Positions 128 through 38,649 of a stretch of DNA of 46,871 bases are shown in pieces; position 1 is the stretch's first letter, and each line of letters opens with the position of its first letter. A model generated the notes under the pieces. It searched no databases, was not told the DNA's origin, and saw only the letters and a program-made list of their open reading frames with translations. The DNA is from a virus. The DNA is taken from the IMG/VR virus record IMGVR_UViG_3300043104_000084. One strand, written 5' to 3'. A program made the position numbers and the translations under genes.

Positions 128-315
128 TTGGCTATATTCTCCAATTCTGCAACCTTGTTATTCCAATAGTCTATCTCTTTCCGTATAGCCGATAAATCCG
201 CCCTTGTGAATGTTTTACCGCCTATTGTGTATGCTTGGTTGATTGCTACCTCGCTTTCCGCTTCTAACCACATATTCAAATGCTCTTTTGCTGTCTTTAA
301 TGTAATTCCTGCCAT
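79..315 (-). CDS. Head-tail joining protein, lambda gpW-like
   Basis: 78 aa, located between terL and portal as in lambda. ATG overlaps the terL stop (TAATG). Small helical protein with a gpW-like pattern. Confidence 0.6.
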   Translation of the reverse strand: MAGITLKTAKEHLNMWLEAESEVAINQAYTIGGKTFTRADLSAIRKEIDYWNNKVAELENIANKKGRNRIFRVVPRDL

Positions 316-16237: not shown

Positions 16238-16310
16238 AGATGTATATATGTCTATAAGGCATAGCGATAAGCATTTGTGTAAGCCACTACGCAAGTGCTT
16301 TTTGTTTTTC
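16238..16310 (+). ncRNA. Predicted ~70-nt plus-strand small RNA, antisense to the 3' end of 16287..16889 and to any read-through rep leader
   Basis: Bounded by the consensus promoter and by a 13-bp hairpin plus TTTTTGTTTTT. Confidence 0.45.
16269..16310 (+). terminator. Intrinsic terminator of the plus-strand RNA
   Basis: AAGCATTTGTGTA-agccac-TACGCAAGTGCTT then a T-run. Its two G-U wobbles on the plus strand would be C-A mismatches on the minus strand. Confidence 0.55.
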
Positions 16311-16889
16311 CCTGTAAATCTTCGTTGCAAAATCTGTTTTCAAGTATCCGCCACAATCTTTGTGTTTCGCCATCCACGAACAACTAAGCAATGTTTTACC
16401 GCATTTCTCGCAAGTCATTTTCAAATACGGATATGCCGTTGTCTGTGCGTCCAAACATGGGATATATGGTATTTCCCCGCTTTCTGCGTAATGGCTGATT
16501 CCCTCTGCAAAATCCGGATAGTCTATCAGATTTCCGATTACTTTTATATCCTCCGTCTGCAATCCTCCAAGTTCCAATATTTCTCCGTATGCTATATCTA
16601 TTGCCTGTCCGTCCTGTAACAGGTAATAAGCGAATGTGTCCGCCGTTTCGTAAAGCAGTATATCCTTGTCGAATATCTCCTTTTTAAGCCTGTCCTGCTT
16701 TCCTGTACTGCTGCATAGTGTTTCTTTGCTCACTTCATACACATTTGCACCCGGATAACCGCCCTTGTCTATGTAATCCCCTACAGGTCTTTTTGCTCCG
16801 TCAAGCGGTCTTATTGGTGGGTCTGTGATATATTCGCCCTCTACCCATATCGGGTACGGTGTACTGCTGCTCTTCGCCTTTGCCCTCAT
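16287..16889 (-). CDS. YopX-like protein with C-terminal zinc ribbon
   Basis: Start at ATG 16889 (ATGA overlap with the upstream stop). VIGNLIDYPDF is a YopX-like signature. CEKCGK...CGG. Confidence 0.5.
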   Translation of the reverse strand: MRAKAKSSSTPYPIWVEGEYITDPPIRPLDGAKRPVGDYIDKGGYPGANVYEVSKETLCSSTGKQDRLKKEIFDKDILLYETADTFAYYLLQDGQAIDIAYGEILELGGLQTEDIKVIGNLIDYPDFAEGISHYAESGEIPYIPCLDAQTTAYPYLKMTCEKCGKTLLSCSWMAKHKDCGGYLKTDFATKIYREKQKALA

Positions 16890-17353
16890 GCCCTGCTGCC
16901 CCTTTCTGCTGATGTATGAATATCTCCTACAATCTTCATTTTCTCGGTATCGCAAACGCCCTTATTATCCACGCAAGGCAGTAAATAGTATTCCTGTCCG
17001 TCCGGCGATACCCACCGAAAGGCTATCACTCCATGCAACCGCACCTTTACCGTCTTTTCCCTAAATCCTGCCAATGTGTTATATTCACGGTTTAGATTCG
17101 TTTCCACGACCTCAAACCGCTTTATCTCTCCGTCCACCTTTAACTCTGTAATATCGCCTGTGTAAATCTCTTTTCCTGTCTTATCGCTATATCCTGTTTC
17201 TCTGCCAAGAGTAGCCGGGTTAATGTCAATAAAATCTCCGTCCGGCGTTCCTATCTCGGCAATCTCGTCTGTATTGAATCCATAGGACGGTAAACCGTAT
17301 ACATAATAAAACCGTTCCTCCGCCCTGTTGTATGCCAACGCTCTATACTTCAC
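16886..17353 (-). CDS. YopX-family protein
   Basis: KEIYTGDI... and ...KIVGDIH signatures. 155 aa. Confidence 0.6.
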   Translation of the reverse strand: MKYRALAYNRAEERFYYVYGLPSYGFNTDEIAEIGTPDGDFIDINPATLGRETGYSDKTGKEIYTGDITELKVDGEIKRFEVVETNLNREYNTLAGFREKTVKVRLHGVIAFRWVSPDGQEYYLLPCVDNKGVCDTEKMKIVGDIHTSAERGSRA

Positions 17354-17576
17354 GGCAATACCTCCTTAACTGCTCTCTGTATTTTTTCTCTGCTTCTAAG
17401 GTTATGTTTTCTGTCCTCAAAGGGCATGGTAATTTTGTTTCCTCTTTCGGATTCCCTAAAATCATGCTTGCAAATCCTCCGCCGTATATCGTCAATCCGC
17501 AATACGGAAACCGTGTATCCCTTTCCCCGCAAAATTCACATTCATAACAATTTTTAGGCTTTTCCATAACCGCCAC
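17343..17576 (-). CDS. Hypothetical Cys-rich protein
   Basis: 77-aa ORF, CxxCxxC near the N-terminus. Confidence 0.5.
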   Translation of the reverse strand: MAVMEKPKNCYECEFCGERDTRFPYCGLTIYGGGFASMILGNPKEETKLPCPLRTENITLEAEKKYREQLRRYCREV

Positions 17577-17579
17577 CGC

Positions 17580-17912
17580 CTATATGTCAATATCAAGGAA
17601 AATAGCCTTTTGCCATTGGATTTTACTAATCCTGTCCTCTATTTCCTCTTCGCTCATTTCGCAACAATCCTCTAAATAGCAACGGAAATTTTCTGTATCG
17701 TCCTTGAAAACATACTGCTCTCCGTCTGCGTACATCTGTTCAAAGGTGTACTCTCTTACCCTTGCCTTTCCTATAACTCCGCTCCACCGCTCGCAATCGT
17801 CCCCGGCTACTACCTCACTTTCCACCATTGGAATAGTTGGTAATTCCGGGTTAAGGCTTGCAAGAATCAGATAATCCCTTACATTCCTTTCCTGTATATT
17901 GTGCAATTCCAT
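17580..17912 (-). CDS. Hypothetical acidic protein
   Basis: 110-aa ORF. Confidence 0.5.
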   Translation of the reverse strand: MELHNIQERNVRDYLILASLNPELPTIPMVESEVVAGDDCERWSGVIGKARVREYTFEQMYADGEQYVFKDDTENFRCYLEDCCEMSEEEIEDRISKIQWQKAIFLDIDI

Positions 17913-17915
17913 GTA

Positions 17916-18245
17916 TTACCGCCTTTCCCACGCCTTTAATTCAAGCGGATATTGTTCTTTCAGTTCCCTTGACCTTGCTACATTGGCTTGCAGTAATAGC
18001 CTTGCTTCCTGCGACTTTTCGGCTGTGAATACCTTGCCGTCCGTCATTTTCTCAAACCGTGCCACATTCCGCCTTAATGCTTCATCCGTTACCGATATGA
18101 CATATACGGCCCCGCAACGCCTACAGACAAAATATTTATGTTCAATATCTCCTGTCCGCTTCGTCCTCGGCTTTATCTTGTTGATTATCCTGCCACATTT
18201 ATTACAGGTTATTATTGCCGGTCCCTTTTTCCTGTTTAACTGCAT
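17916..18245 (-). CDS. Hypothetical zinc-ribbon protein
   Basis: CNKCGR...CRRCG. 109 aa. Confidence 0.5.
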   Translation of the reverse strand: MQLNRKKGPAIITCNKCGRIINKIKPRTKRTGDIEHKYFVCRRCGAVYVISVTDEALRRNVARFEKMTDGKVFTAEKSQEARLLLQANVARSRELKEQYPLELKAWERR

Positions 18246-18484
18246 TATTTTCCCTCCTGTTTCTTCTTAGGACACCATGCCGGAGAGGTTTTAATACTCG
18301 GTGTATTCTCAAAAGGCTTTCCGAACCCTATAAAACCCTCCATTTTATGTATTTTGTAGTCTTTGAAATACTCTAAAATATATTTTTTGTCCGGGTGTTC
18401 GCAATGAAAACTCCCCCGTGTATTTCCGTAGCGTCTGCTGTCTTTGCAGTATTTGCACTCCGCACATTTAATTTTTCCTGCCAT
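18245..18484 (-). CDS. Hypothetical Cys-rich protein
   Basis: 79 aa. CAECKYC...C motifs. Confidence 0.5.
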   Translation of the reverse strand: MAGKIKCAECKYCKDSRRYGNTRGSFHCEHPDKKYILEYFKDYKIHKMEGFIGFGKPFENTPSIKTSPAWCPKKKQEGK

Positions 18485-18504
18485 TGTTCCGCTCCTTTCT
18501 TTCC

Positions 18505-18528
18505 GCTAGGGGCGGAATTGCCCCTAGC
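18505..18528. other. GC-rich 9-bp hairpin (GCTAGGGGC-6 nt-GCCCCTAGC) 14 nt downstream of the VR2 gene stop, no U-run
   Basis: Read directly. Confidence 0.6.
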
Positions 18529-18541
18529 CGTTATCTCCTGT

Positions 18542-19219
18542 CTATTCCTCTTCCGTGAGGATAGAAGATTTAAACACACAAGCCGGGCGAACGCCAATGT
18601 AACCATAGTACGCATTGTAGTCGTCGAGCGAACCGTCCGTGTACACAATCCGGGCATAATGGTTAATTGTGCTGTCAGCCGTGATTAACCACCACCAATC
18701 CTCTATCCGGTGGATAAACTGGCGGTACTTCCTGTACTGTTCACAAGTAAGCAGAAAAACCTTGTCCGTACTGCTGCCGTAATCCTTTAATCCGTCATCC
18801 GTTGTCAAATCCTGCTCCTGCTCCAAAATCGCCCCCGTATCCTGTCCTTTTGCTTTCATTTCCTCGCATAATGCGTTAAGGAATTTTCCGTTAAGGCGTT
18901 CTCTAAGGCTCGATTTCTTCCAATCGTTGCTGTTTTCCTCGTCAAATGCCTTGTACTCTACGATTTCGTCCGTAATGCAAAGTACCCTGTCCTCGTCCTT
19001 TGCCAATACATCCCAAACCAAACCGCCGATTTTTACCCTGCTGCCCTCTGCGTAATCTGCTAACTGCTTCATTTCCTTTTCCTCCTTGTTAATTTTGCTA
19101 ACCGTCCTGCACCACGATATAGCATTGTTTTTAGTTGCCTTTATAGTTCCCGTGATACTCATGTTTTGCCCGAAAATTTCACATTGTTTCGGCATATAAA
19201 GCACATCATCATGTTTCAT
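18542..19219 (-). CDS. DGR target protein 2: stand-alone variable C-type-lectin-like domain protein (VR2 at C-terminus)
   Basis: C-terminus WWWLITADSTINHYARIVYTDGSLDDYNAYYGYIGVRPACVF is paralogous to the VR1 region. Alternative start ATG 19072 has a strong GGAGGA RBS. Confidence 0.8.
   Translation of the reverse strand: MKHDDVLYMPKQCEIFGQNMSITGTIKATKNNAISWCRTVSKINKEEKEMKQLADYAEGSRVKIGGLVWDVLAKDEDRVLCITDEIVEYKAFDEENSNDWKKSSLRERLNGKFLNALCEEMKAKGQDTGAILEQEQDLTTDDGLKDYGSSTDKVFLLTCEQYRKYRQFIHRIEDWWWLITADSTINHYARIVYTDGSLDDYNAYYGYIGVRPACVFKSSILTEEE
18575..18658 (-). repeat. DGR variable repeat VR2
   Basis: 84 nt aligned to TR 28941..29024. 11 mismatches, all at TR adenines (coding strand). Confidence 0.85.
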
Positions 19220-19230
19220 TCTTTTTTCTC

Positions 19231-19440
19231 CTATTTCTTTGAGTAAATCGAATGTAACTTAATGCTTCCTCTCCGCTTTATGCTCTCTTCGGTGTGCAAT
19301 CCCGAATCAAAGAACGCACAAAACGTAGTTCCTCCGATTTCCGTAGTTGCTACAATGTGTGAGCCTATATCGTGAAACTCACAATTTTTCGTGTTACGGA
19401 AAATCATAATGTGCTTTTCCGTCCTGCTGCCTTTCCCCAC
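19231..19440 (-). CDS. Hypothetical protein
   Basis: GTG start 8 nt after AGGAGGG. 69 aa. Confidence 0.4.
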   Translation of the reverse strand: MGKGSRTEKHIMIFRNTKNCEFHDIGSHIVATTEIGGTTFCAFFDSGLHTEESIKRRGSIKLHSIYSKK

Positions 19441-19624
19441 TGGTCCGACCCTCCTTTATTGCTTTTTGTTCTTTTGATATATCTGCTATTGCCTGTGTTA
19501 TCTGCTCATAATCCCCTTGCAGATAATCAGCAACTAAGCCTATGACCTGTAACGGCAAACCGTCCTCTACAACCTCATTTCCTACCCTGTCTGCTATCTC
19601 TCTTGCTATTTCCTTTACATCCAT
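19394..19624 (-). CDS. Hypothetical acidic protein
   Basis: 76-aa ORF. Confidence 0.45.
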   Translation of the reverse strand: MDVKEIAREIADRVGNEVVEDGLPLQVIGLVADYLQGDYEQITQAIADISKEQKAIKEGRTSGERQQDGKAHYDFP

Positions 19625-19626
19625 GT

Positions 19627-19809
19627 CTATACTGTCCTCTGTGCCGTATCAGCCTTGTATGGAGTTCCCCCACGCTTTAACTCGTTGTAGATTGTTGCAC
19701 GGTGTACTCCTATACTTTCTGCAATCACTACTACACGCTCGCCGGACTTGCACATTTTTTCTATTTTCTGCCTGTCCTCGTAGTTCAATCGCCTATTTCC
19801 TTTTCTCAT
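19627..19809 (-). CDS. Stand-alone HTH protein resembling the N-terminal HTH of IS30 transposases
   Basis: LNYEDRQKIEKMCKSG...IAESIGVHRATIYNELKRG parallels MSRSDRIKMEALLNAG...HRSTIYREYEKG of the adjacent transposase. Confidence 0.55.
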   Translation of the reverse strand: MRKGNRRLNYEDRQKIEKMCKSGERVVVIAESIGVHRATIYNELKRGGTPYKADTAQRTV

Positions 19810-19825
19810 GCTCTTTTACCTCCTT

Positions 19826-19874
19826 AACAAAAAAAGAAAAATGCGTCTAAAGGTCACAAACCCTTGACGCATTT
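19826..19874 (-). terminator. Hairpin plus U-run directly upstream of the RBS of 19627..19809
   Basis: Minus strand AAATGCGTC-18 nt-GACGCATTT then TTTTCTTTTTTTG. Confidence 0.45.
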
Positions 19875-19885
19875 CGTATTTTTAG

Positions 19886-19932
19886 GTATAAAAAAGAAAT
19901 GCGAAAGAGTTTAATAACTCTTGTCGCATTTC
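19886..19932 (-). terminator. Strong intrinsic terminator downstream of the IS30 transposase gene
   Basis: 16-bp stem with a 1-nt bulge (GAAATGCGACAAGAGTT/AACTCTTTCGCATTTC) followed by TTTTTT. Confidence 0.7.
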
Positions 19933-19994
19933 ATTTTACAATGTAGCATTATATTTTGTCAATAGTTTTGCGACAAGTTTTTCAAAAAATTTTT

Positions 19995-21032
19995 CTATGC
20001 CAATTTCTGCAATTCTTCCTCGAATAACTCCGCTGATGTTCTATAATCAAAAATTCCCCTTGGATAGTGGTTTATCCAGTTCTCTATATATTCTATCTCT
20101 TCATCCGTTGTATCCTCAAAGTCTACTCCCTTTGGTATGTGCCTGCGTATGAGCCTGTTATTGTTCTCGTTCGTTCCCCTTTCCCAACTACTGTAAGGGT
20201 GGCAGTAAAAAACATAAGTCCTCTTTTCCTCTCTTAGTGCTGATTTCTCCATGCCCTCATAATCTGCAAACTCTACGCCATTATCTACCGTTATGCTTCT
20301 GAATATCTTATAGAACATATCGCCCCATTTTCTCTCTAACCGGTCCAATGCTTTCACTACAGACGCTGCCCCTTGGTCTTTCAGTTTGATAACTATTTCA
20401 TCCCTCGTCTTTCTCTCTGTCAGTACAAGCATACAGGACTTTGTAACGCCACGCTGCCCCTTTACCGTATCCATTTCCCAATGTCCGAATATCTCTCGGC
20501 TCTCTATCTCTTCCGGGCGATTTTCTATACTTTCTCCTGCACTTGCCCTCTTCTGTACCTTTACCTTTTTATTGTGTTTCTTCCTTTTCCCCTTTATCGG
20601 TAATTCCTTATTTGTCAGTTTAAGGAAGATTCCATTATCAATATATCTGTATAGCGTCCTCACGCTAATTGTTGTCTTAAATTCAATTCCCGACCTTGTG
20701 ACCTCTGCTAGTGCTGCTTCCGGGCTAAACCTGTCATTTACTATTTTGTCCTCTATGTACTCTGCCAACTCCCTATCGTTCCCGATTTTTAACGCCCTGC
20801 CTTTCCCCTCTTGGGCGTAATCGTGTGCTTTCTGTCCTAAATCGCTGCTATATCTTTCTTCCTCTGTGTAATCTGAATTTCTGTGTATATACTTTCCCTT
20901 TTCGTATTCCCTGTATATCGTACTCCTGTGAAAATGTAATTGTTCTGCTACCTCCGCCTTTGTATGTCCGGCGTTTAGCAATGCTTCCATTTTTATACGG
21001 TCACTCCTGCTCATTTGCTTAAATTTTCTCAT
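19995..21032 (-). CDS. IS30-family DDE transposase
   Basis: N-terminal HTH. HWEMDTV, ITVDNGVEF and SWERGTNENNNRLIRR (DDE triad context). Start at ATG 21032 after GGAGGTG. Confidence 0.85.
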   Translation of the reverse strand: MRKFKQMSRSDRIKMEALLNAGHTKAEVAEQLHFHRSTIYREYEKGKYIHRNSDYTEEERYSSDLGQKAHDYAQEGKGRALKIGNDRELAEYIEDKIVNDRFSPEAALAEVTRSGIEFKTTISVRTLYRYIDNGIFLKLTNKELPIKGKRKKHNKKVKVQKRASAGESIENRPEEIESREIFGHWEMDTVKGQRGVTKSCMLVLTERKTRDEIVIKLKDQGAASVVKALDRLERKWGDMFYKIFRSITVDNGVEFADYEGMEKSALREEKRTYVFYCHPYSSWERGTNENNNRLIRRHIPKGVDFEDTTDEEIEYIENWINHYPRGIFDYRTSAELFEEELQKLA

Positions 21033-21060
21033 TGTATACACCTCCAAACGCCAAAAGGCA

Positions 21061-24990: not shown

Positions 24991-25302
24991 TTAATCTTCC
25001 TGTCCGTGTGCCTTTTGGTTAATGTGTTTTTCCAGTTTTCCTATTGCTTCCGTAACCGGACCGTTGCACCCCTGCTCTTTCAATCCTTTCAGACAGGCAA
25101 GGACGGCATAGGTAAGCAGACACATTTCGTCTTTGATTGCCTGTATATCTTCCTGCTCTTTCTTTTTCAACGCTTCAATGTCCTTTGTCTGCTTCTCCTG
25201 TGTCTGAAACCACTTGACAACTTTGTAGGCAACCGCTCCGATTGCTCCCAACGCCCCTAACAGGCTTGCAAGTGTAATTATTGTTGCTGAATTAACGTAC
25301 AT
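24991..25302 (-). CDS. Single-pass membrane protein with coiled coil
   Basis: Start moved to ATG 25302. The upstream part of the track ORF is a terminator hairpin. Confidence 0.5.
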   Translation of the reverse strand: MYVNSATIITLASLLGALGAIGAVAYKVVKWFQTQEKQTKDIEALKKKEQEDIQAIKDEMCLLTYAVLACLKGLKEQGCNGPVTEAIGKLEKHINQKAHGQED

Positions 25303-25320
25303 ACTTTCCCCTTTCTCTAA

Positions 25321-25344
25321 AATAAAAAGTGCGGTTTCCCGCAC
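25321..25344 (-). terminator. Intrinsic terminator after the tail-fibre accessory genes
   Basis: GTGCGG-GAAA-CCGCAC followed by TTTTTATTTT on the minus strand. Confidence 0.65.
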
Positions 25345-25352
25345 TCCCTATT

Positions 25353-25535
25353 TTAGATTTTATCGGATATTTCCTTTAGTTCGGTTGCTGCCTTTGAAAT
25401 ATCCTTGCTTACATTGTCTGTTATATAACCTCCTGTGGCCCTGCTGTGTTCCATTTCCAACGCCATATTGTAGATTATATCGGATTGAGCCTTAATTACT
25501 TCCTTTAGGCTTTCCATGACTTCCAACACGGTCAT
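25353..25535 (-). CDS. Hypothetical small protein
   Basis: ATG 25535 overlaps the stop of the XkdX-like gene (TAATG). Confidence 0.45.
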   Translation of the reverse strand: MTVLEVMESLKEVIKAQSDIIYNMALEMEHSRATGGYITDNVSKDISKAATELKEISDKI

Positions 25536-25693
25536 TACTTGTATTCCTCGCCTGTGATTTCCTTGTATTCCGTTTCCGTAATCACTCCGAAACCTACAAA
25601 CTTCTGTAACTGTGCCTTGGTACATCCTCCACGCCCGTAACGCTCCTTTAATACCTCAAACCGTGCTGAATGTGTTGTTGTTTTGCTTGCCAT
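25535..25693 (-). CDS. XkdX-family small protein (52 aa; below ORF-track cutoff)
   Basis: My translation: MASKTTTHSARFEVLKERYGRGGCTKAQLQKFVGFGVITETEYKEITGEEYK. The ...IT.EEY..ITGE.Y ending is the XkdX signature. Confidence 0.6.
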   Translation of the reverse strand: MASKTTTHSARFEVLKERYGRGGCTKAQLQKFVGFGVITETEYKEITGEEYK

Positions 25694-25698
25694 AATGT

Positions 25699-25866
25699 TT
25701 ACTCTCCTTTCGATTGCAACTCTAAGATTGCCAACTCTAAATCTGTGATTTCCAAGTCCTTTTCAATATCCCTTAATTCCAAGTCCGTAAGGTACTGCTC
25801 CATTTCCGGGATAACTTTTTCTTTCTGCCTTTTCTCCGTAAGGCTCTGCTTTCTTATCTGCTCCAT
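25699..25866 (-). CDS. Small coiled-coil protein (55 aa; below ORF-track cutoff)
   Basis: ATG 25866, 5 nt after GGAGGTG. Position equivalent to XkdW-type genes after a fibre gene. Confidence 0.4.
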   Translation of the reverse strand: MEQIRKQSLTEKRQKEKVIPEMEQYLTDLELRDIEKDLEITDLELAILELQSKGE

Positions 25867-25877
25867 GCTGCACCTCC

Positions 25878-27596
25878 TTAATCAAAACAGTATCCGATAG
25901 AAAACGCCTGCACTCTTTCCGTGTTATTGTTCTTTGTTATCGTAACCCGGACAGATACGCCGTAACGCTCGCTGTCAAATTCCGTATTCGTGAAATGGTA
26001 CGCTTCCTTGTTCTTAAATGCTTCGGTTGCGTCCTCCCACACTACCTCTGCGTTGTATGTGCAGTTTGTAACCTCAACCTTAATATCCGGCTCTCCGGTC
26101 TTGTCGTAGTCAAGGTTTACCATAATCTTTTCTGCCGGGGCGTCCGTTTCTACCGCTTTGATTTCAAATTTCAACGCTGCATAGAGTTTTGTAAACTCAA
26201 TGTATCGGTATGCTTCCGCACCGTCTGAATTAACCGCCTTAATGGTTAATTTATGGGTCTGCTCATTCTCCAGCATATCAAAACCGGACAGGTCAAAATT
26301 GATATTCTCCTGCTGCGGTGCTACTTCGATTTTTCTTACCTCTTCGTCATCCACATACTCGGTAATGCTGATACTCTTAAATTCCGAATCGTTGACTTGA
26401 TAGGTAATATCGAACGGCTGCCACTTATTCCCGATATTGGAATCTGTACCGCTGATTGCAACGCTTGAATTGATTTTGTTGAAAATTACCGTCTTTGTGC
26501 TTTCGTTTCCGTAGGAATCTTCCGCCCAAATCGTAAAGGTATGCTGCCCCGCTGATAATGTGTTAATCTTTGTGCCGGATATGCTTACCTTGTATCCGTA
26601 TTCCAGTACCACGGTGTCAAGCGTCTGTATAACCTCTCCGTCCAATGATACTTTTGCCGTTACCTCGTCATTGTCTGCGTCCGTGATTGAATAGTTGAGG
26701 TCGAACGGTGCGTTTTTATCCCCCAAGTTCTCCGAATCCGTATTGATTACAGGCGGTGCGTTCCAAACTATTGTATATGCCCCGTCTGTATCGGCTTCGT
26801 CAGATACAAGGATAGAAGATGAAACCACACAAGCCGGGCGAACGCCACTGTGACCATAGTACGCAGGGTTGCCGTTGAGCGAACCGTCCGTGTACACATC
26901 CCGGGCAGAGTAGGAATTGGACGCATACGGTGTTCTAAGCCACCACCACCAAGGACTGCTTGCTGCTAAACTGCTGCTTGTGTATTCCGACTTTGCCACC
27001 GCTTCCGCTGTCGGGTATGCAATCCTGTTACTCGCTGTGTTGAACAATGCGTAAATGCTGCCCTCTGCAATGCTGTTTTCGTTCGCTAATCCAACCTCCG
27101 TATTGGATAACAGGAAAACTTTCTGTGTTACATCTTCGTAACCTCCGCCGTCTGTAACCGTATTCTTTGCAACCCTTTTCGTTACTGTCAATAACTCCGC
27201 CCTTAACTGTTCGGAGAAATTGGTTAAAAATCCGGCTTCTTGGTCGTACTCGTTATAATTCGACCATACATTAGCGTTTGTCGGTGCTGCGTCCGCACTA
27301 TGCTGTGCTGAATACCATGCCCCCGCTGCCTTTTCGCTATTCAACCATTGCCTTATGTTTGAATAGAGCCAACGGTTATTTCCATACTGCTTCCTGTTTG
27401 AATCTGAATTGCCCGATTCGATAGCGTCAAAACATTTCAAGGTAATGATATTTGATGTAATCAACGCCGTGGAATTATCGGGGTCCCCTGCGTGATTGTG
27501 TTCCATAACGGTAAACAATATCGGTTTTCCGTTATAGGTTGTGAGCGTGTCTTTGACTTTTGTACCGCTCGGTAGGCTACTTAATAACTTTGCCAT
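25878..27596 (-). CDS. DGR target protein 1: receptor-binding tail fibre protein (N-terminal variable lectin-like domain, C-terminal Ig-like repeats)
   Basis: VR1 encodes ...WWWWLRTPYASNSYSARDVYTDGSLNGNPAYYGHSGVRPACV. The C-terminal half has repeated beta-rich modules (PPVINTDSENLGDK..., AISGTDSNIGNK...). Confidence 0.85.
   Translation of the reverse strand: MAKLLSSLPSGTKVKDTLTTYNGKPILFTVMEHNHAGDPDNSTALITSNIITLKCFDAIESGNSDSNRKQYGNNRWLYSNIRQWLNSEKAAGAWYSAQHSADAAPTNANVWSNYNEYDQEAGFLTNFSEQLRAELLTVTKRVAKNTVTDGGGYEDVTQKVFLLSNTEVGLANENSIAEGSIYALFNTASNRIAYPTAEAVAKSEYTSSSLAASSPWWWWLRTPYASNSYSARDVYTDGSLNGNPAYYGHSGVRPACVVSSSILVSDEADTDGAYTIVWNAPPVINTDSENLGDKNAPFDLNYSITDADNDEVTAKVSLDGEVIQTLDTVVLEYGYKVSISGTKINTLSAGQHTFTIWAEDSYGNESTKTVIFNKINSSVAISGTDSNIGNKWQPFDITYQVNDSEFKSISITEYVDDEEVRKIEVAPQQENINFDLSGFDMLENEQTHKLTIKAVNSDGAEAYRYIEFTKLYAALKFEIKAVETDAPAEKIMVNLDYDKTGEPDIKVEVTNCTYNAEVVWEDATEAFKNKEAYHFTNTEFDSERYGVSVRVTITKNNNTERVQAFSIGYCFD
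26826..26931 (-). repeat. DGR variable repeat VR1
   Basis: 106 nt aligned to TR 28941..29046. 13 mismatches, all at TR adenines (coding strand). Confidence 0.9.
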
Positions 27597-28749
27597 TCTT
27601 TTTTACCTCCTGCTTTTTCTTTCTTGCTCTTTGCCTTTGCTCATTGTATCTTTTCAGTTTTTCATATCTCGCCTTTTCTGTATCAGAGAGGTAATCAATG
27701 AATAAACCATAAAAATAACAATCCATTTCCTGTAACATATAGTAGGTATCTCCACGGCTTGCGTGTGCTTTCCATGATTGGTAGGAATCTTTCACGGCTT
27801 CGTATGTTATTTCCTTACGGTCTACCTTTGCTTTCATTTTCCGTAGTTTCTGCCTTTCGTGGCTCTTGCTTTTCGCCTTTATCCGGCAAACTACTTTCCC
27901 GCTTTCCGTAAGGTATACATGAAACCCCAAATAATTTATGCCTGTCGTAACAGGCACAATCTTTGTTTTCTTGGCATTAAGTTTTAACCCTAACCCCTCT
28001 GCCATTTTCCCTATTTCCTTTAGGCAGAATTTCAAGTATTCCTTGCTCTCATGGATTAAATAAAAATCATCATTGTACCTTGCAAATCCTCCGATTTTCA
28101 ACCGTTCTTTTATCATGTGGTCTATCGGACTTCCTGCTATCAATGCGTCCAACTGTGATAACTGGTTGCCAAGCGGTACGCCGTACTCTCCGCCTGTGCT
28201 TGCGTGTATCATCCGTATAAGTCTGATTATCCGCTCATCCTTAAACTCACGCTCGTATGCCCTGTTTAACAACTCATGTGATAAACTGTCAAAATATCCC
28301 GAAAAATCACATACAAGGATGTATCCGCTTGTGCCGTGTATCCTGTAATGGTGTCTTAAATCCTCTTTCAGACAATCCAATGTAAAATCTGTGCCTTTTC
28401 CTTTTAGGCTCGCACCATTGCTATAAACAAATGTCGGTGCAATCCTCGGTGTTAAGATATTGTCACATAGATTTTTCTGCACAACTCTATCTTTGTATTT
28501 TGCACTTTTTATATTTCTTAGTTTTCCTCTCTCGTTGACCGTAAAGCAATGATATTTCCCTATGCTATACTTTTCTGACATCAAGAGGTACTGCAAATAC
28601 AATGTGCTTTCCAATGCCCTTAAATCGTATGTTGCTACGCTGTCTTTCCACCTTTTGCCCTGCCTGCAATTCCTGTGCGATTCGTACAGATTTCCAAAAT
28701 CTGTGAGGATTCCGTAATCGTCATATTTATTTTCTTTTCTTGTAATCAT
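27577..28749 (-). CDS. DGR reverse transcriptase
   Basis: YNDDFYL (YxDD box) and VPLGNQLSQ (the DGR-type GxxxSQ motif). Start set at ATG 28749 (MITRKENKYDDYG...). The track ORF runs on through the spacer into the TR. Confidence 0.9.
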   Translation of the reverse strand: MITRKENKYDDYGILTDFGNLYESHRNCRQGKRWKDSVATYDLRALESTLYLQYLLMSEKYSIGKYHCFTVNERGKLRNIKSAKYKDRVVQKNLCDNILTPRIAPTFVYSNGASLKGKGTDFTLDCLKEDLRHHYRIHGTSGYILVCDFSGYFDSLSHELLNRAYEREFKDERIIRLIRMIHASTGGEYGVPLGNQLSQLDALIAGSPIDHMIKERLKIGGFARYNDDFYLIHESKEYLKFCLKEIGKMAEGLGLKLNAKKTKIVPVTTGINYLGFHVYLTESGKVVCRIKAKSKSHERQKLRKMKAKVDRKEITYEAVKDSYQSWKAHASRGDTYYMLQEMDCYFYGLFIDYLSDTEKARYEKLKRYNEQRQRARKKKQEVKKNGKVIK

Positions 28750-28940
28750 GTCGTTTTTCTTTCTGAAAAAATCCACACCGCATACAAATGAGTACATAAC
28801 CCAACTACTCCAAATGTGGGGCATGGGTGTCGGTGTTCCTTTATTTGTCATGCACATATATCCTGCACGACCGGGGTATACCCTCCTTGTGTGGTATTCT
28901 GATTTCTGCGGTAAAAACCGCCTACTCTGTCGCATTTTTC

Positions 28941-29046
28941 CACTCAATCCGGGCGAACGCCATTGTTACCATTGTACGCATTGTTGTTGTTGAGCGAACC
29001 GTCCGTGTTCACATTCCGGGCATTGTAGGAATTGGACGCATACGGT
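28941..29046 (-). repeat. DGR template repeat (TR)
   Basis: Coding-strand TR is rich in AAC/AAT codons and carries an in-frame TGA at its 3' end. Lies between avd and RT. Confidence 0.9.
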
Positions 29047-29072
29047 TAAACAGGGTATACCCCAAAATCTTT

Positions 29073-29507
29073 TTATTTTGTTTTTACTTCATCCGTGAAT
29101 TTTTCTCCAAATCTTTCCTCGTCTTTCTTTAACCATGCTGCGGTTAATGTCCTAACCTCAAATACTGACTTCGCCCAAAATGACGCTTTATCATAACCCA
29201 AATTGAATAATTCCTTGCTAATATCTATCAGCGTCATAAGGCTACGGCAATACGCCATAGCCTGCCTTTGTTTTGTCCGTCTGAATAGGTATTCTTCTCT
29301 CGTCTTTGGGAATATTTCGTTTGCTTCAATCAAGCAAGCCACTATTTCCACGGCTTTATCCTGCATTTTATTTACTACCGATAACCTGTAACGCTTTGGA
29401 AAATTCTTCTCATTATTCGTAATCCTCAAAGTGTATATAACCATTTCTTTCGCCTTTACGATAACGGTTAAATCTCCCTGCGTCCTTTCTCCTGCCCTTA
29501 CGCTCAT
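29073..29507 (-). CDS. avd: DGR accessory variability determinant (Avd-like four-helix-bundle protein)
   Basis: 144 aa, basic, pattern ...KAKEMVIYTLRITNNEKNFPKRYR... Located immediately upstream of the TR. Confidence 0.7.
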   Translation of the reverse strand: MSVRAGERTQGDLTVIVKAKEMVIYTLRITNNEKNFPKRYRLSVVNKMQDKAVEIVACLIEANEIFPKTREEYLFRRTKQRQAMAYCRSLMTLIDISKELFNLGYDKASFWAKSVFEVRTLTAAWLKKDEERFGEKFTDEVKTK

Positions 29508-29511
29508 AGGC

Positions 29512-30243
29512 TTATGCGTACAGGCACTTGTTTGTACTGTCGTACATACCGCTTACCATGATTACATCATCATTACTTGAAAATGTTTCTATAACCACAT
29601 TGTCCGAATCCATAATATCAGCGTCCGTTAATGTTGCCATTGTCATAGCCATTTGCAACATTTCCCTTTTCATGGTATCCATGCTCTTTTCCGTGTTTCC
29701 GACAATGCTTAACGCTTCCTGTATCTGCTCCTGCGTTGTCTGATTGATATTGTCAATGAGAGCCTTTACCTCCAAGCGTAAATTTTCAACATCTTTCTTT
29801 GTTGCCATAACTACGCTTGGGTCTACAATCAGTTCCACGCTCTCTGTATTTGCCAATGCAATTTCCATTGACAAATCCAATTCATGTACTACGCCGTCCG
29901 ATACCCTTACTTTCTGCGTGTCCGGCGTGTTGCAAATTGCAATCAATACGCCGTCCTCGTCAAACAATCCCATTTCACGGATTGTAAAACCGCCTGCGTC
30001 TGACGGTATCACGGATTCCACGATTAAGAGGTTTTCCGATTCCTCACTAATGTAGCAGGCGTTTACCGTTCCCCTCCATACCTCGTTTTTTAACGCCGTT
30101 GCTGCGGTTGTCGGATTGTAAAACCGTCCTCCGCCATCTCCTACCGCAAACTGTGTAATGTTTACTTTCTTTTCCTCGTTCAATGCTTCAAGCATTTTCC
30201 GTGTGCCCGAATCGGTCACAAGTGTAAAATATGTGCTTGCCAT
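29512..30243 (-). CDS. Tail fibre N-terminal/collar protein (P2 gpH N-terminal-domain-like)
   Basis: ITQFAVGDGGG...P....T.L.NEVWRG and FTIREMGLFDEDG motifs are typical of the tail-collar fibre domain. Confidence 0.65.
   Translation of the reverse strand: MASTYFTLVTDSGTRKMLEALNEEKKVNITQFAVGDGGGRFYNPTTAATALKNEVWRGTVNACYISEESENLLIVESVIPSDAGGFTIREMGLFDEDGVLIAICNTPDTQKVRVSDGVVHELDLSMEIALANTESVELIVDPSVVMATKKDVENLRLEVKALIDNINQTTQEQIQEALSIVGNTEKSMDTMKREMLQMAMTMATLTDADIMDSDNVVIETFSSNDDVIMVSGMYDSTNKCLYA
30203..30219. repeat. 17-nt palindrome copy 5: GTGCCCGAATCGGTCAC
   Basis: Encodes VTDSGT at residues 9-14 of the fibre collar protein. Confidence 0.9.
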
Positions 30244-30246
30244 AAT

Positions 30247-31080
30247 TTACTGCTCCTTTCTGATTATGATTGTCTGCTTATTTCTCTGATATGCCTTAAT
30301 GCTTCCTAATGCGTCCATTTCCGCCCTTAAACTGCTTTCGGTATAGGATTTTACCTTTATGCTGTTTAATGCCTGTAAATGGGCGGTAACAACCTTTTCT
30401 CCTACTGCCTTGATTGCTCCGTCAAGGATAGGCTTAACTTTTATCTTTCCGCCTATAAGCGTTGCTGCCCTTATATCGTTTTGTCCTGCTGCCTTGATTG
30501 CCCTTTGCAGATACGGCTTTACCTTTAGCCTTGTTCCTACTTCATGCAGGGCAACCGCCTGTACGGTAGCCTTTTCTATGCTTAACCTGTAGAAAATTCC
30601 GTCACAATGGGAACGCAAGTTTTTATAAAACTGCATTTTCTTTTCGATTTCAAGGCTTGTATCCTCGCTCAATCCCTCGTTTCCAATGTCTACGGTCACT
30701 CGAAAAAAATACGGCTCTCCGCCGTAGTCAAACCATTCCTCTACATCCGCCGTCCTGTATACATCCTGTAATACCGTTCGTACTGCGTATTTAGTACCTA
30801 ATTTCTGATGTACCCGGATACTGTTTTTAAGTATTTTCCTTTTTGTTTCAATCGGATAATCATAATCGTACCAATCAACGTGTAAATCATACGCCAAGGT
30901 ATCAAGCCACCGTTCCCCTAGTTCGTCAATCCTTGCATAGATTATGTTCTTTTCCGCTTCATTTGCGGTTATATGCAGTTCATCCGCAATCAAACGCCCC
31001 AAGGCTGCCATACTTTCATCACGCTTTAGGGCGGGTGGGAATGTTTCGTAAAAGTCTGCTGTTTTTAACTCTTTATTCAT
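30247..31080 (-). CDS. Tail protein I-like (P2 gpI family)
   Basis: FPPALKRDESMAALGRLIADEL... and position after the baseplate J gene. Confidence 0.6.
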   Translation of the reverse strand: MNKELKTADFYETFPPALKRDESMAALGRLIADELHITANEAEKNIIYARIDELGERWLDTLAYDLHVDWYDYDYPIETKRKILKNSIRVHQKLGTKYAVRTVLQDVYRTADVEEWFDYGGEPYFFRVTVDIGNEGLSEDTSLEIEKKMQFYKNLRSHCDGIFYRLSIEKATVQAVALHEVGTRLKVKPYLQRAIKAAGQNDIRAATLIGGKIKVKPILDGAIKAVGEKVVTAHLQALNSIKVKSYTESSLRAEMDALGSIKAYQRNKQTIIIRKEQ

Positions 31081-32218
31081 CCTCTATCCCCCCAAAAGTC
31101 ACATTACAGGTTTCCAGTACCGCAACGCTTCCCTTTGGTATCTCCGTAAATGCAGGCTCTTCAATCACAACCCTTTTTATTCCCGATTCCATGAGCATTG
31201 CATTAAAATAGGACGGGTTAATATCCCGCCCCATTTTTTGGGTCTGCCATAATGTATAATTTTCTGTAGCGTTTTCTACCGCTTCTCTGATTTCATTTGT
31301 ACTTGCCGTGCTGTCCGTTGAAATGTAATAAGTAGCCTTTATGTTAAATGGTACTGTGTCCGGTGCTGCCACTATAACCTTGTCTGTCAGAGGTCTAATA
31401 TCTTCCTCGCTTAAATGCTCCTGCACCTTGCTTAATAATTCCTCTTCGGGCAATTCTCCGTTTTGGCACATAATACGAACATCCACCACTCCCGGCGTTG
31501 GACTTCCTGCGTATACATCACATATCAATGCCGATACTGTTTTCGCTTGATATTCGTAACCGCCTTTCGGTCCCGCCGTTGAGTATGTTTCCTCGGACTC
31601 TCTCATACGGTTATAAAAAGCCGTGTCCGTTTCTTCCTCGCTTCCTCCGCTCGATTCCGTTACATTCTCAACCGACTTGTAATATAAAAATTCGTCCGAT
31701 ACCAATTTGCTAATCTGACCGGGTGCAAATCCGTTTCCGATTTCTCCCTCTGTTTCACATACCGCCTGTACCTCTGCGTAGTTCTCGCCTGCTTTGAATG
31801 TCAAATGCCCTGTAGTCAGAAAGTTTATATTTCCGTCAACCGTTACCTCTAATTCGTCTGTGATAATGTAATCGCTCGTTAATGTCGTTGATATAGTGAA
31901 TCCCAATGTAACAACTGCTGCCTGTGGCTCTAATCTGCTGACATTATGGAAAATCTCGCTTAACGAATCCAAATTATTTCCTGTTGCGTATCTCGGTAAG
32001 TTCTGCTTGGCAGATTCGTTTATCTCTACCCTTTCCTGTATAATCACGCTTGCAAGCCATAATATAAACGCCCTTACCGGGTCTGCCGGGTAAAGCGTCC
32101 TCCCTGTAGTTGCTTCATATCCTGCTATGAGTTTATTTACCAATGTTTCGGTGTCTGTATCTACAAACTCAACCTCTGGTAAGTTACTCGGTATATTCCT
32201 CGTTGTCGTATTCGCCAT
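31073..32218 (-). CDS. Baseplate J-like protein
   Basis: 381 aa. Position between gp25-like and gpI-like genes; gpJ-like N-terminal pattern. Confidence 0.75.
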   Translation of the reverse strand: MANTTTRNIPSNLPEVEFVDTDTETLVNKLIAGYEATTGRTLYPADPVRAFILWLASVIIQERVEINESAKQNLPRYATGNNLDSLSEIFHNVSRLEPQAAVVTLGFTISTTLTSDYIITDELEVTVDGNINFLTTGHLTFKAGENYAEVQAVCETEGEIGNGFAPGQISKLVSDEFLYYKSVENVTESSGGSEEETDTAFYNRMRESEETYSTAGPKGGYEYQAKTVSALICDVYAGSPTPGVVDVRIMCQNGELPEEELLSKVQEHLSEEDIRPLTDKVIVAAPDTVPFNIKATYYISTDSTASTNEIREAVENATENYTLWQTQKMGRDINPSYFNAMLMESGIKRVVIEEPAFTEIPKGSVAVLETCNVTFGGIEDE

Positions 32219-32525
32219 TTATTTCCACCTCCACAATCGGTTTTAATATTCCTGTTTCCGGTTCTATCTTAAACGATATGTCTACGATTTCCGCCCTCGG
32301 TTCGTACTGCTCTACCTTGTCGTATAAATCTGTGGTTGCTAACGCCTTTGCCGTTTCTATCGGCTTGTCTACATAATCCGGCGTAAGTCCTAGCCCTCTG
32401 TCAAGCGGTATCTGATACTCGATTGTACTAAACAGAAACCATAGATTTTGTAATACTTCCTCTTCCACCGTCTGCGGTTCTATGTTGAGTTCCACGCTTT
32501 CCGTTGTGTCTACTGTTCTGCTCAT
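32184..32525 (-). CDS. Baseplate wedge protein, GPW/gp25 family
   Basis: 113 aa. ...VLQNLWFLFSTIEYQIPLDRGLGL... Confidence 0.7.
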   Translation of the reverse strand: MSRTVDTTESVELNIEPQTVEEEVLQNLWFLFSTIEYQIPLDRGLGLTPDYVDKPIETAKALATTDLYDKVEQYEPRAEIVDISFKIEPETGILKPIVEVEINGEYDNEEYTE

Positions 32526-32531
32526 TTCCTC

Positions 32532-32930
32532 CTACCTTTCCGGGTATTCTTCAAGCGATATTTTTATTTCTGCCACAAGCAGATTTCCTTTATTGTCGAA
32601 CCGCTTTAACCCCTTTGAGTGTGAGGTAATAACCCATTTTGTGCCGTATTTCTTACCGCCTATCACGAGTGATAATATCTTGCCTTTCTTTCTGTATTTG
32701 TCTACTTTCTTCATCATGCTTAAAGGGTTTACGCCAAGGTATGCAGACAGGTACATGGAAAAACTCGCCGTGTCTGTATCGTTGTACTGAAATTCCAACA
32801 ACGGCTTTTTGTTATGCCTTGTGTGCTTTGCGTAATTGGTTTTGCTCTCTATCTGCAAATCATCAAAGGTCTTTACCGTGCTGTCCGATACCGTAAAGAC
32901 AATATCGCCAAGCGTTCCAATCTTTGCCAT
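32532..32930 (-). CDS. P2 GpU-like tail protein
   Basis: 132 aa. Layout G.IVF.V......F..L.....NYAKH......P.LEF ... LVIGGK.YG.KWVI.S matches the GpU pattern. Confidence 0.5.
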   Translation of the reverse strand: MAKIGTLGDIVFTVSDSTVKTFDDLQIESKTNYAKHTRHNKKPLLEFQYNDTDTASFSMYLSAYLGVNPLSMMKKVDKYRKKGKILSLVIGGKKYGTKWVITSHSKGLKRFDNKGNLLVAEIKISLEEYPER

Positions 32931-33337
32931 TAAATACCTCCTATGATAAATCCGTCCCCGTCCCCGCCCGGCTTAAAGATACATAGTACCCATTGCCCTA
33001 TGTACGGTATCCACGGATATATTTTTATTGTCTGCTCTTTGCCTGCGTAATCCGTTACTATCGTGTCCGGGTATTCTTTTTTGTACGTTTCTCCCAAGCC
33101 TAAATCCCTGTCGTACCCTGTATACTCCGCCTTGTAGTTCCACTCTGTACCGCTGTCTTTGTTCTGCACGGTTATTAGAGGTGTGTTCTGCACAATGCGT
33201 AAATCCCCGGTCACTATGCCCTGCTCCTGTATCTTTACCCTTGCTGTCATTTGCCCTTTGTTTACGCTGCTCACAACCCCGATTCTTACAAGGTCTTTTA
33301 GTTCCTGCATATCTGTATCATCAAATTTACTGCTCAT
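32930..33337 (-). CDS. Baseplate assembly protein V-like (spike)
   Basis: Start at ATG 33337 (TAATG overlap, GGAGGG RBS). OB-fold-like N-terminus GVVSSVNKGQMTARVKI. Confidence 0.6.
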   Translation of the reverse strand: MSSKFDDTDMQELKDLVRIGVVSSVNKGQMTARVKIQEQGIVTGDLRIVQNTPLITVQNKDSGTEWNYKAEYTGYDRDLGLGETYKKEYPDTIVTDYAGKEQTIKIYPWIPYIGQWVLCIFKPGGDGDGFIIGGI

Positions 33338-34653
33338 TAGTAACCCTCCAAACATGACCTAAGTTTGATATTGACCTTGTACCCTCCTGTAATGTTGTGG
33401 GTAGCCTGTTCAATGATGTACTTGCCGTTAAATTCTCCGTATCCGTACACCCTTACCGTTGCCCCTGCTACATAGTCCACATCTCCTACAAGGGTAAATT
33501 CCGCCGTTGTTTCCCCCTTATTCTTTGCTCTAAGGGATTTCCTCGCTAATTCTTTCGCTTCGTCAACGCTGCTGACTTTCTGCGTGACTTCCAATGTCTG
33601 ACCGTCCGAATTTGCGTTATCCGGCTTGTATGTGTATTCTATGGTCTTTTTTGTGTTCGGGTCTGTATATTTTACATGGCAGGCGGAATATGCGGTATCC
33701 GCCGTTTTCGTTGAGAAACTGTAACTAAGTATGTTTCCCTTTCCTGCCTTTATTTTCTTGATTTCTGTTTTTTTCTCATAATCGGCAGCGTCAAATAGCA
33801 CTATTGTATTGGATGTAACCTTTAATGATATTCCTGCGTTCTTGCACATTTTCTGTAAAAAGGCTATGTCCGTCATGTTTATCTGCTCTTTTCGCTTATA
33901 AACCGGGTTAGAGTTTGACAGGTACATAAACTTCATACTGCTGCGTTTTGCAATCTTCGCACCCATGTTTTTAAGTGTTGTATTCTCCCAAGTCCTGTTA
34001 TACAATGTCTGCCTTAATTTCGACTTATACGGTATGGATGTAGCCTTTATCGTTAATTTCTGCGGTGGCCCCGTATAATTCACGCTGTCTATTTCAAACA
34101 CGCCACAATCAAGCACTTTGTCCTTTCCGTCCGTGTAGGGATTTTTCTGTACTACCATAGCGTGTATTCTTGTACCCTTAAATGCCCTCTTTTCTGTAGC
34201 CTTGGTTGTCGTTGTTGTTGTAACCGTATCGCCCTCAACATCTGAAGCATTGACCCAACCGTAAACCTTTTTGCCGTCCTGTGATATTAAGTGGTATGGG
34301 TGTGCGTTGGAGTTTGCTATTGTACATTTGCACTTGCTCGCTCCCCTTGTTACTGTCGGCTCTGCTGCCGTTGAGGAAATGTATACCGGTCCGCCCTTAA
34401 ACTGTACTATGTTTCCTGCTTTTACCTCGCTTGTCGTTTTAGTCGTTTTAGAGCCTGCCTTATTGGTGTTTAGCCAATCCTTAATCCATTTTCCCTCTCT
34501 ATCATCAAGCGATATGGATATATCGTCTGTTTCGTCCTCTTCCTTGTCCGTGAATGAAAGGGATAACAGATATTTAGAGAGGTCTTTTGATATGTCTGTA
34601 TCTTTGAATGTAAGTTTTACATACGTTCGCCTTGCAAGTGTCTTATTACTCAC
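33337..34653 (-). CDS. gpD/late-control-D-like baseplate hub protein with inserted SH3-like domain
   Basis: 438 aa. Position after the LysM/X gene. C-terminal ...YIIEQATHNITGGYKVNIKL is typical of the gpD family. Confidence 0.7.
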   Translation of the reverse strand: MSNKTLARRTYVKLTFKDTDISKDLSKYLLSLSFTDKEEDETDDISISLDDREGKWIKDWLNTNKAGSKTTKTTSEVKAGNIVQFKGGPVYISSTAAEPTVTRGASKCKCTIANSNAHPYHLISQDGKKVYGWVNASDVEGDTVTTTTTTKATEKRAFKGTRIHAMVVQKNPYTDGKDKVLDCGVFEIDSVNYTGPPQKLTIKATSIPYKSKLRQTLYNRTWENTTLKNMGAKIAKRSSMKFMYLSNSNPVYKRKEQINMTDIAFLQKMCKNAGISLKVTSNTIVLFDAADYEKKTEIKKIKAGKGNILSYSFSTKTADTAYSACHVKYTDPNTKKTIEYTYKPDNANSDGQTLEVTQKVSSVDEAKELARKSLRAKNKGETTAEFTLVGDVDYVAGATVRVYGYGEFNGKYIIEQATHNITGGYKVNIKLRSCLEGY

Positions 34654-34873
34654 TTTCTGTTACCCCCTGTTTCCACGGTGGCAATGATTCCGATACCTCT
34701 AAATCAATTTCCGGCAAGGTAAGTAAAACCCCTGCCGGAAAAATGTAGGTATCCTTATGCTCTATATTCGCCTTAATCAGCGTATCCATATACATTTCAT
34801 TGCCATAGGCTTTATAAGCCACAATATCCCAAGTGTCCCCGGAAATTGTCGTATATGTATTAAGCATAAGCAA
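34646..34873 (-). CDS. Tail protein X-like (LysM-type)
   Basis: 75 aa. YTTISGDTWDIVAYKAYG... Confidence 0.6.
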   Translation of the reverse strand: MLMLNTYTTISGDTWDIVAYKAYGNEMYMDTLIKANIEHKDTYIFPAGVLLTLPEIDLEVSESLPPWKQGVTESE

Positions 34874-38003: not shown

Positions 38004-38007
38004 TACC

Positions 38008-38566: not shown

Positions 38567-38596
38567 TTTTGTTTTACCTCCACTTGGATTTAGGCA

Positions 38597-38622
38597 TAAG
38601 AAAAGCACGGTTTCCCGTGCCT
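38597..38622 (-). terminator. Intrinsic terminator/attenuator after the tube gene
   Basis: GCACGG-GAAA-CCGTGC followed by TTTTCTTAT on the minus strand. Confidence 0.6.
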
Positions 38623-38649
38623 GCTCCTATGCCGTTTCTTTTTACTTTT

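Follow-up and report, generated by a model that had tools for sequence, protein, structure and literature searches.

Results

We analysed a virus genome from IMG/VR (record IMGVR_UViG_3300043104_000084; 46,871 nt, called the window at its full length) and find that its single diversity-generating retroelement (DGR) has a genuine second target, far from the cassette, as a sequence-only reading of this DNA had proposed. The variable repeat concerned (VR2, 18575..18658) lies in a small gene (18542..19072), 10.4 kb from the template repeat (TR) of a cassette made up of an Avd-like gene, the TR and a reverse transcriptase (RT). We give a probability of about 85% to VR2 being an active, remote second target of this DGR. 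The assignment is carried by direct observations: substitutions at adenines only, a 3' element that the repeats have in common, the recent diversification seen in this lineage and the fold of the encoded protein. All genes of the window, and every feature located below, are on the minus strand.

VR2 matches the TR without gaps over 84 nt (18658..18575 against TR 29024..28941). Of these positions 11 differ, all of them at TR adenines; with 25 adenines in the stretch, the hypergeometric probability of this outcome is 2.4e-7. The alignment of the sequence-only reading thus stands, with no mismatch at any of the 59 non-A sites. The codons it had singled out are also as described: where the TR reads AAC AAC AAC AAT, VR2 reads GAC GAC TAC AAT and the variable repeat of the first target (VR1) reads AAC GGC AAC CCT. 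Likewise, homology to the TR begins 22 nt later in VR2 (TR 29024) than in VR1 (TR 29046). When every TR adenine is masked as N, the resulting pattern occurs exactly three times in the window, as TR, VR1 and VR2, and never in 100 shuffles; no third target was found in the window with this A-masked pattern.

Part of the 3' end of VR2 appears to be fixed. A VR carries the 'initiation of mutagenic homing' sequence (IMH) at its 3' end; the TR has a variant of it, IMH*. Beyond a GC-rich box, on its 3' side, are two of the mismatches (A>C at TR 28948 and A>T at 28944). VR1 has them too and relatives do not vary there, which makes fixed differences between IMH and IMH*, rather than mutagenesis, their most likely origin. 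A third mismatch, at 18658, falls on the edge of the homology and is invariant in relatives too, so that about 8 or 9 of the 11 VR2 mismatches would be true diversification products. The first base 3' of the aligned stretch is a non-A difference (G at TR 28940, T in VR2) and therefore lies outside the mutagenised part, which we place at about 18597..18657.

The GC-rich box itself, GGCGTTCGCCCGG (18583..18595), lies at the 3' end of VR2, where the IMH presumably starts with it, and is identical in TR (28949..28961), VR1 (26834..26846) and VR2. Next to it, the IMH-like segment CTTGTGTGTTTAAATCTTCTATCCT (18558..18582) is common to VR1, where 26809..26833 reads CTTGTGTGGTTTCATCTTCTATCCT and agrees with VR2 at 22 of 25 positions; the IMH* of the TR, ATTGAGTGGAAAAATGCGAC, has diverged from it. 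On sequence, then, VR2 has both the GC-rich stretch and the following sequence unlike the TR IMH* that are expected of an IMH.

Close relatives of the small gene differ from it in the way that a DGR would bring about. Two near-identical relatives from metagenomes were compared, L001 (Logan SRR10148554, protein 94% identical) and L002 (JGI 3300035510). In VR2 each has 11 differences from the window, all of which fall on TR-A sites and none on the 59 non-A sites; outside VR2 they have 5 and 23, respectively, over the 447 gene positions. Fisher's test gave P = 2.4e-7 for A against non-A sites in the L001/L002 comparison and, for L001, P = 2e-6 for the VR against the rest of the gene. The 14 aligned members of a cluster at 90% identity (P0016) are nearly invariant save at the VR codons, where they vary widely, and in 13 near-identical members of a cluster whose protein is fused to an HD phosphohydrolase (P0030) variation is almost confined to the VR codons, the HD part being nearly invariant. 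The TRs of L001-L010 lie beyond the 10-kb flanks or off short contigs, and mismatches in the VRs of relatives were scored against the TR of the window. Such patterns are what mutagenic homing leaves behind when it acts repeatedly on VR2-type repeats, here in the window lineage, and by the measure of the sequences compared VR2 is not a relic but recently diversified. The TR-A-only changes in L001 and L002, together with the different codon patterns of the two repeats, also uphold the earlier claim that VR2 diversified independently of VR1.

In the direction of transcription the cassette reads Avd-like gene, TR, RT and tentaclin, so that a DGR-type RT and a TR, the latter between Avd and RT, occur in the same element as VR2. 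The maximal open reading frame (ORF) of the RT (27577..28947; RVT_1 E 6.6e-17) contains YNDD and LGNQLSQ, the latter of which we take to fit [I/L]GxxxSQ, a signature of DGR RTs; its start is probable near a Met at ~28749. The TR (28934..29046) holds 10 AAY codons in the part shared with VR2. The Avd-like accessory protein (29073..29507) is 37% identical to the Avd region of phage nd4 (OR777945.1) and canonical in size and position; its family matches are weak (bAvd E 0.004, 17.9 bits for a cut-off of 40; NF033474, 24 bits for a cut-off of 80). Target 1 is a tentaclin of 572 aa (25878..27596; DUF6273 E 1.2e-38, phrog_10993 E 8e-147; 36% identical to the nd4 tentaclin) with an N-terminal DUF6273 domain, immunoglobulin-like domains and an internal VR1 (26821..26931), which has 13 mismatches over 107 nt and 4 more in the next 6 nt, all at TR adenines. 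We also note that the maximal RT ORF runs back into the 3' end of the TR (28934..28947), a start at ~28749 leaving a spacer of ~185 nt after the TR, and that the RT ORF and the start of tentaclin overlap by 20 nt (27577..27596).

The second target had been described as a protein of 225 or 176 aa depending on its start. Both starts exist, at 19219 and at M50 (19072), and the longer form is not the conserved one. A protein search found 146 homologues; almost all of the 120 listed are 170-210 aa long and cover only the C-terminal ~78% of the 225-aa ORF (18542..19219), and M50 has a strong ribosome-binding site, AAGGAGG within 19070..19087, from which we conclude that the conserved product is the 176-aa form. 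A scan of the genomes of 185,579 species yielded 133 confirmed matches to the small target. The remaining 49 codons (19073..19219) form an optional in-frame N-terminal extension with a weaker ribosome-binding site of its own, which almost no listed homologue spans. There is a weak alignment between it and the C-terminal part of the P0058 DUF7768 domain. In other phages this domain precedes the small gene (for instance as the preceding gene at L007 9635..9988) or is fused to it, and judging by these alignments the extension is probably the decayed remnant of an upstream DUF7768 (deoxyribosyltransferase-like) gene.

The 176-aa protein consists of a single DUF6273 domain (Pfam E 2.7e-15) with the VR at the C-terminal end of the domain and belongs to family phrog_9958 (E 5e-61). 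AlphaFold (AF2) gives a confident single-domain model (predicted local distance difference test score 96), whose best solved match in Foldseek is the DUF6273 domain of the immunoglobulin A (IgA) peptidase of Thomasclavelia ramosa (9qa6, E 3.6e-8). Classical C-type lectins are weak matches, and in BFVD the protein matches DUF6273 phage proteins. Pfam, AF2 and Foldseek thus make the earlier label 'lectin-like' apt, in the sense of a DUF6273, C-type-lectin-like domain. In the model the ten Asn-templated codons map to strands 139-143 and 149-153 and the following loop, in agreement with the hairpin of Baykov et al. By BLASTP the protein can be aligned with the lectin domain of tentaclin in its last 50 residues only. 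Inspection revealed no evident signal peptide and no obvious anchor domain, and the IgA-peptidase literature yielded no ligand assignment for DUF6273. Scans with NCBIfam and PADLOC gave no match for the small protein, its neighbours or the HD fusion, and an assignment to defence or counter-defence was dropped for lack of a match in either.

Across the contexts compared (~60 relatives), the small gene stands in the early/replication module in every one, which agrees with the earlier placement of the gene outside the virion module. In L003-L006 it follows a serine integrase, a CI-like repressor and a few small early genes and precedes YopX, REP and RecU. The window has the same order, with a helix-turn-helix (HTH) gene and an IS30-family transposase upstream and YopX, REP, RecU, a methylase and ParAB downstream, and L048 shares the gene order of the window. 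In more distant phages the gene lies beside a RecD-like helicase and an RNA ligase, beside PcfJ and DUF3102, or between DnaB/Dam and REP/terminase. As had been remarked, the genes just downstream in the window encode small Cys-rich, zinc-ribbon-like proteins. The VR2 gene is the fourth of a putative early operon downstream of the module of IS30-type transposase and HTH gene, headed by a sigma-70-like promoter sequence (TTGACA-18-TAAAAT, 19933..19962) that matches the consensus at 11 of 12 positions, a match to the consensus only.

In about 25 Oscillospiraceae-type (Clostridia prophage) loci (L055 and L060-L087), two small DUF6273 genes in tandem are followed by Avd, TR and RT in the replication module and with them make up the entire compact cassette, and both small genes show A-only mismatches between TR and VR. 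The tandem cassette of L078 (10001..12690), for example, sits between DnaB/Dam and REP/terminase and not in the tail module. In some phages small DUF6273 proteins are the only DGR targets. Other members of the family are fused to further domains: an HD phosphohydrolase at the C-terminus (P0030, P0031, P0035 and P0063, ~380 aa; locus L007 10001..11152), MazG at the C-terminus (P0089), DUF7768 at the N-terminus (P0052 and P0058) or a YopX-like domain at the N-terminus (P0009). We found no description of HD, MazG, DUF7768 or YopX-like fusions as DGR targets in the literature searched. A sequence search of the PDB gave nothing for DUF7768 and, for the HD part, only a marginal match to YhaM (E 0.044).

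The window looks like the complete genome, ~46.9 kb, of a temperate myovirus. Upstream of the cassette lie the tail-fibre, baseplate, tape-measure, sheath, capsid and portal genes; downstream follow the lysis genes, the IS30-family transposase, the HTH gene and the early/replication genes, with the terminase last. The large terminase and the portal occupy opposite ends of the window (315..2153 and 45031..46740). The sequence is probably that of a complete phage genome, circularly permuted and opened between these two genes. The IS30-family DDE transposase (19995..21047; NF033563 239 bits; HTH_38 plus rve), which the HTH gene (19627..19809) adjoins, occupies the slot usual for the integrase of temperate phages, between the lysis genes and the early operon. 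Homologues (46-51% identity) likewise lie upstream of the small gene in nd4, L012, L035, L040 and L048, and downstream of it instead in L019 and L032; the transposase may be the integrase of this group of phages. Two adjoining genes with YopX domains (16287..17353; 155 and 222 aa, with an overlap of ~70 nt and a Cys-rich C-terminal tail on the second) form a pair that is kept in L003-L010.

The closest relatives point to a Lachnospiraceae host (L008, from Petralouisia muris, 70% identity). Scans of IMG/VR with peptides of the 225-aa ORF and with the A-masked TR pattern found no relatives. The same pattern found nothing in a metagenome scan, though the JGI contig L002 fits it, the collection evidently being without that sample. 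Megablast against GenBank phages returned a single match for 17500..20500 (296 bp, Clostridium phage Saumur) and none for 25000..46871. L001, the contig with the closest homologue, begins with Illumina adapter sequence (ACACGACGCTCTTCCGATCT, 1..25), so that its 5' end is an assembly artefact and uninformative on the upstream region.

Discussion

If the established DGR pathway operates here, the TR (29046..28934) would be transcribed together with Avd and RT and give rise to A-mutagenised complementary DNA. This DNA would replace any VR that carries the common 3' element. The element, made up of the GC box GGCGTTCGCCCGG and then CTTGTGTG..ATCTTCTATCCT, stands beside the cassette in tentaclin (VR1) and has a second copy in the small gene, at a distance of 10.4 kb (VR2). 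Since resolution at the 5' side needs homology, only the 84 nt common to VR2 and TR would be rewritable. Homing would then randomise ten Asn-templated codons (15^10, ~6e11 variants) on the predicted beta-hairpin and following loop of a single-domain, C-type-lectin-like protein.

Several points weigh against an active VR2. The Avd-like match falls under the curated cut-offs. The activity of VR2 is inferred from the sequences of relatives whose own TRs were not recovered. The IMH-like segment also codes for ACxFxSSIL, which is conserved in the family; its preservation is therefore not independent evidence, as the constraint on the protein is inseparable from a role as IMH.

As to the role of the small protein, its gene position and fusion partners lead us to suggest, tentatively and at less than even odds, a cytoplasmic adaptable binder that acts in early infection or lysogeny. 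The early/replication location, the promoter-like site, the lack of an evident signal peptide and the fusions of cytoplasmic type in which the VR is hypervariable favour such a role without proving it. A competing explanation, to which we give serious weight short of an even chance, is a virion-associated receptor-binding protein or adhesin, Mtd-like and encoded away from the tail genes, with VR2 serving host-range or surface adaptation beside tentaclin. This would account for the C-type-lectin-like fold with the VR on a modelled surface hairpin and for the TR held in common with tentaclin, and DUF6273 domains do occur in phage proteins annotated as tail or receptor-binding (BFVD). It is also the hypothesis put forward for the second target of nd4 by Baykov et al. 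(PMC10743442) and for that of Toutatisvirus (bioRxiv 10.1101/2024.10.15.618418). No virion proteomics or adsorption assay turned up in the literature consulted. Such a protein would, however, have to work with one domain of 176 aa and do without a beta-prism, an anchor or a trimerisation module. Its gene is in an early/replication location in all contexts examined, including phages in which small proteins are the sole DGR targets, and the HD, MazG and deoxyribosyltransferase-like fusions are hard to square with a tail tip.

A cytoplasmic role faces difficulties of its own. As far as is known, characterised phage DGR targets are receptor-binding proteins, and the tentaclin served by the same TR is presumably exposed on the virion. 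Gene position and fusions are circumstantial, and PADLOC gave no match for the small protein. DUF6273 has been solved in one structure only, as the N-terminal domain of an IgA peptidase that is secreted (PMC12402451). Taken further, the cytoplasmic role could make the small DUF6273 proteins a kind of 'intracellular antibody', an early-operon, DGR-diversified recognition module for variable factors of hosts or competitors (defence proteins, modified nucleic acids or nucleotides) which in some clades would carry an enzyme fused to it (HD, MazG or deoxyribosyltransferase-like) to the target; we regard this extension as speculative and rather unlikely.

Another proposal concerns the way in which VR2 is recognised. 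The GC-rich hairpin at 18505..18528, with arms GCTAGGGGC and GCCCCTAGC around the loop AATTCC, is intergenic, before the next gene. The sequence-only reading described it correctly, with a 9-bp stem, no T-run (U-run in RNA) and a distance of 47 nt from 18575, and likened it to target-recognition hairpins, a likeness that fared less well. Published DGR hairpins, which are found 4-34 bp from the VR, combine a GC-rich stem of 7-10 bp with a 4-nt GRNA loop (PMC3240598); a recognition hairpin of the GRNA type was not found at VR2, where the loop has 6 nt and the distance is 47 nt. The hairpin is not a terminator, and it is present in L001 and absent in L002. Members of the closest clade (L003, L004, L008 and L009) have another stem at this place, GGGGTGC paired with GCACCCC, and its loop, GGTA or GGAA, conforms to the GRNA rule. 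Of the 114 family targets scanned, only 9 have a perfect GC-rich hairpin (at least 7 bp, within 140 nt), against 3% of random windows. The other 105 have none, among them L002, L005, L010 and almost all targets of the tandem cassettes; these are clearly diversified, so that a hairpin is no general requirement, and a family-wide recognition hairpin was rejected on this count. Downstream of VR1 (26735..26850) there is no GC-rich hairpin either (fold z-score -0.4). VR1 lies in the middle of tentaclin and has 17 A-site substitutions despite this; its homing apparently needs no hairpin of the type of Bordetella phage BPP-1. Lying between two genes, the element at 18505..18528 might just as well serve RNA stability or attenuation. 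We thus think it improbable that it is a DGR target-recognition hairpin or cruciform for VR2, as in BPP-1, and a lineage-specific helper of VR2 is possible. A second, imperfect and AT-rich hairpin (TCTATCCTC and GAGGAATAGA around ACGGAA, 18541..18565) overlaps the stop codon, is predicted in both the minimum-free-energy and the centroid folds and is identical in L001 and L002.

It is very improbable that VR2 was once a target and has since decayed, or that it is an old paralogous copy, its likeness to the TR being historical and homing no longer taking place: such a relic would suit a 5' homology 22 nt shorter than that of VR1, an activity read from relatives rather than from reads of the window genome and the non-A difference at TR 28940, but the last of these sits in the IMH region, which homing does not copy, the 59 non-A sites are unchanged despite diverged flanks, near-identical relatives vary at 11 TR-A and no non-A sites, and the GC box and IMH-like segment are intact.

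Remote and multiple DGR targets are well known, and the pair of tentaclin and small DUF6273 protein is already published. What the window contributes is a divergent member, whose phage apparently infects Lachnospiraceae, together with clean comparative evidence of a remote target that is still being rewritten. What is new here is the early-module location in every context examined, the lack of an obvious signal peptide or virion anchor, and the fusions to HD, MazG and deoxyribosyltransferase-like domains with the VR hypervariable, all of which hint at a cytoplasmic role. If the small proteins do act within the cell, tropism switching would not be all that phage DGRs do; they would also supply adaptable intracellular binders, with relevance for the arms races between gut phages and their hosts and for the engineering of DGR-based binders. 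If the 'intracellular antibody' reading were true, one template would diversify an external adhesin, tentaclin, and an internal counter-defence binder at once.

Comparison with known systems

The architecture itself is not novel, as it has been published as target 2 of nd4-like phages (PMC10743442) and in Toutatisvirus (bioRxiv 10.1101/2024.10.15.618418). As described by Baykov et al. 2023 (PMC10743442), one TR of the gut phages nd4 and nd12 serves both a tentaclin (target1) and a small DUF6273-only target2. The likeness of the window to nd4 is close: both have the order baseplate, Avd, TR, RT, tentaclin, lysis, IS30-type transposase, HTH, small target and RecU, and in both the VR lies near the C-terminus of the small protein and internally in tentaclin. 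The distance from TR to VR2 is ~11.7 kb in nd4 and 10.4 kb in the window, and 9 of the 10 mismatches between TR and VR2 of nd4 are at adenines. The two genomes are syntenic gene for gene at 36-48% amino-acid identity, with no match at the nucleotide level. The small protein of nd4 is 46% identical over 100% of the 176 aa of the window protein; it has 234 aa and a C-terminal helix, as against a core of 176 aa in the window. The nd4 paper treats target 2 as an Mtd-like receptor binder, and the early-module location is not discussed in its accessible text (PMC10743442).

Toutatisvirus likewise carries a second VR gene with DUF6273, in its core genome and 17,480 nt from the TR (bioRxiv 10.1101/2024.10.15.618418), a remote DUF6273 gene targeted alongside a Hoc-like/tentaclin gene. 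The Faecalibacterium phages Lelie and CP11 have a large and a small DUF6273 target, and among the cognate genomes of CP11 both VRs vary in an A-specific way (PMC11792537). The proteins of FP_Toutatis and Lelie are 30-31% identical to the window protein. Toutatisvirus, Lelie and CP11 differ from the window in belonging to other phage lineages with other hosts (Oscillospiraceae) and in the distance and orientation of the target to the TR.

The Mtd protein of BPP-1, the prototype of DGR targets, resembles the small protein in its C-terminal VR on a fold of the C-type-lectin type, in the GC-rich IMH at the 3' end of its VR and in TR codons rich in AAY. It differs in its 381 aa, in beta-prism and beta-sandwich domains that mount it on tail fibres and in lying within the cassette, whereas the window protein is a single 176-aa domain, encoded 10 kb from the cassette in an early operon and without the 4-nt GRNA hairpin. 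N-terminal mounting domains of the Mtd type were not found in the small protein, whose 176 aa form one globular domain. Vallota-Eastman et al. reportedly described, in 2020, intracellular multidomain DGR targets of cyanobacteria in which a lectin-type domain is fused to cytoplasmic enzymatic or signalling domains. These would be a precedent for DGR targets away from the surface; they differ in being cellular rather than phage-encoded and in having other fusion partners. Set against these systems, the window is a new, divergent member of the published architecture in which one TR serves a tentaclin and a remote small DUF6273 protein.

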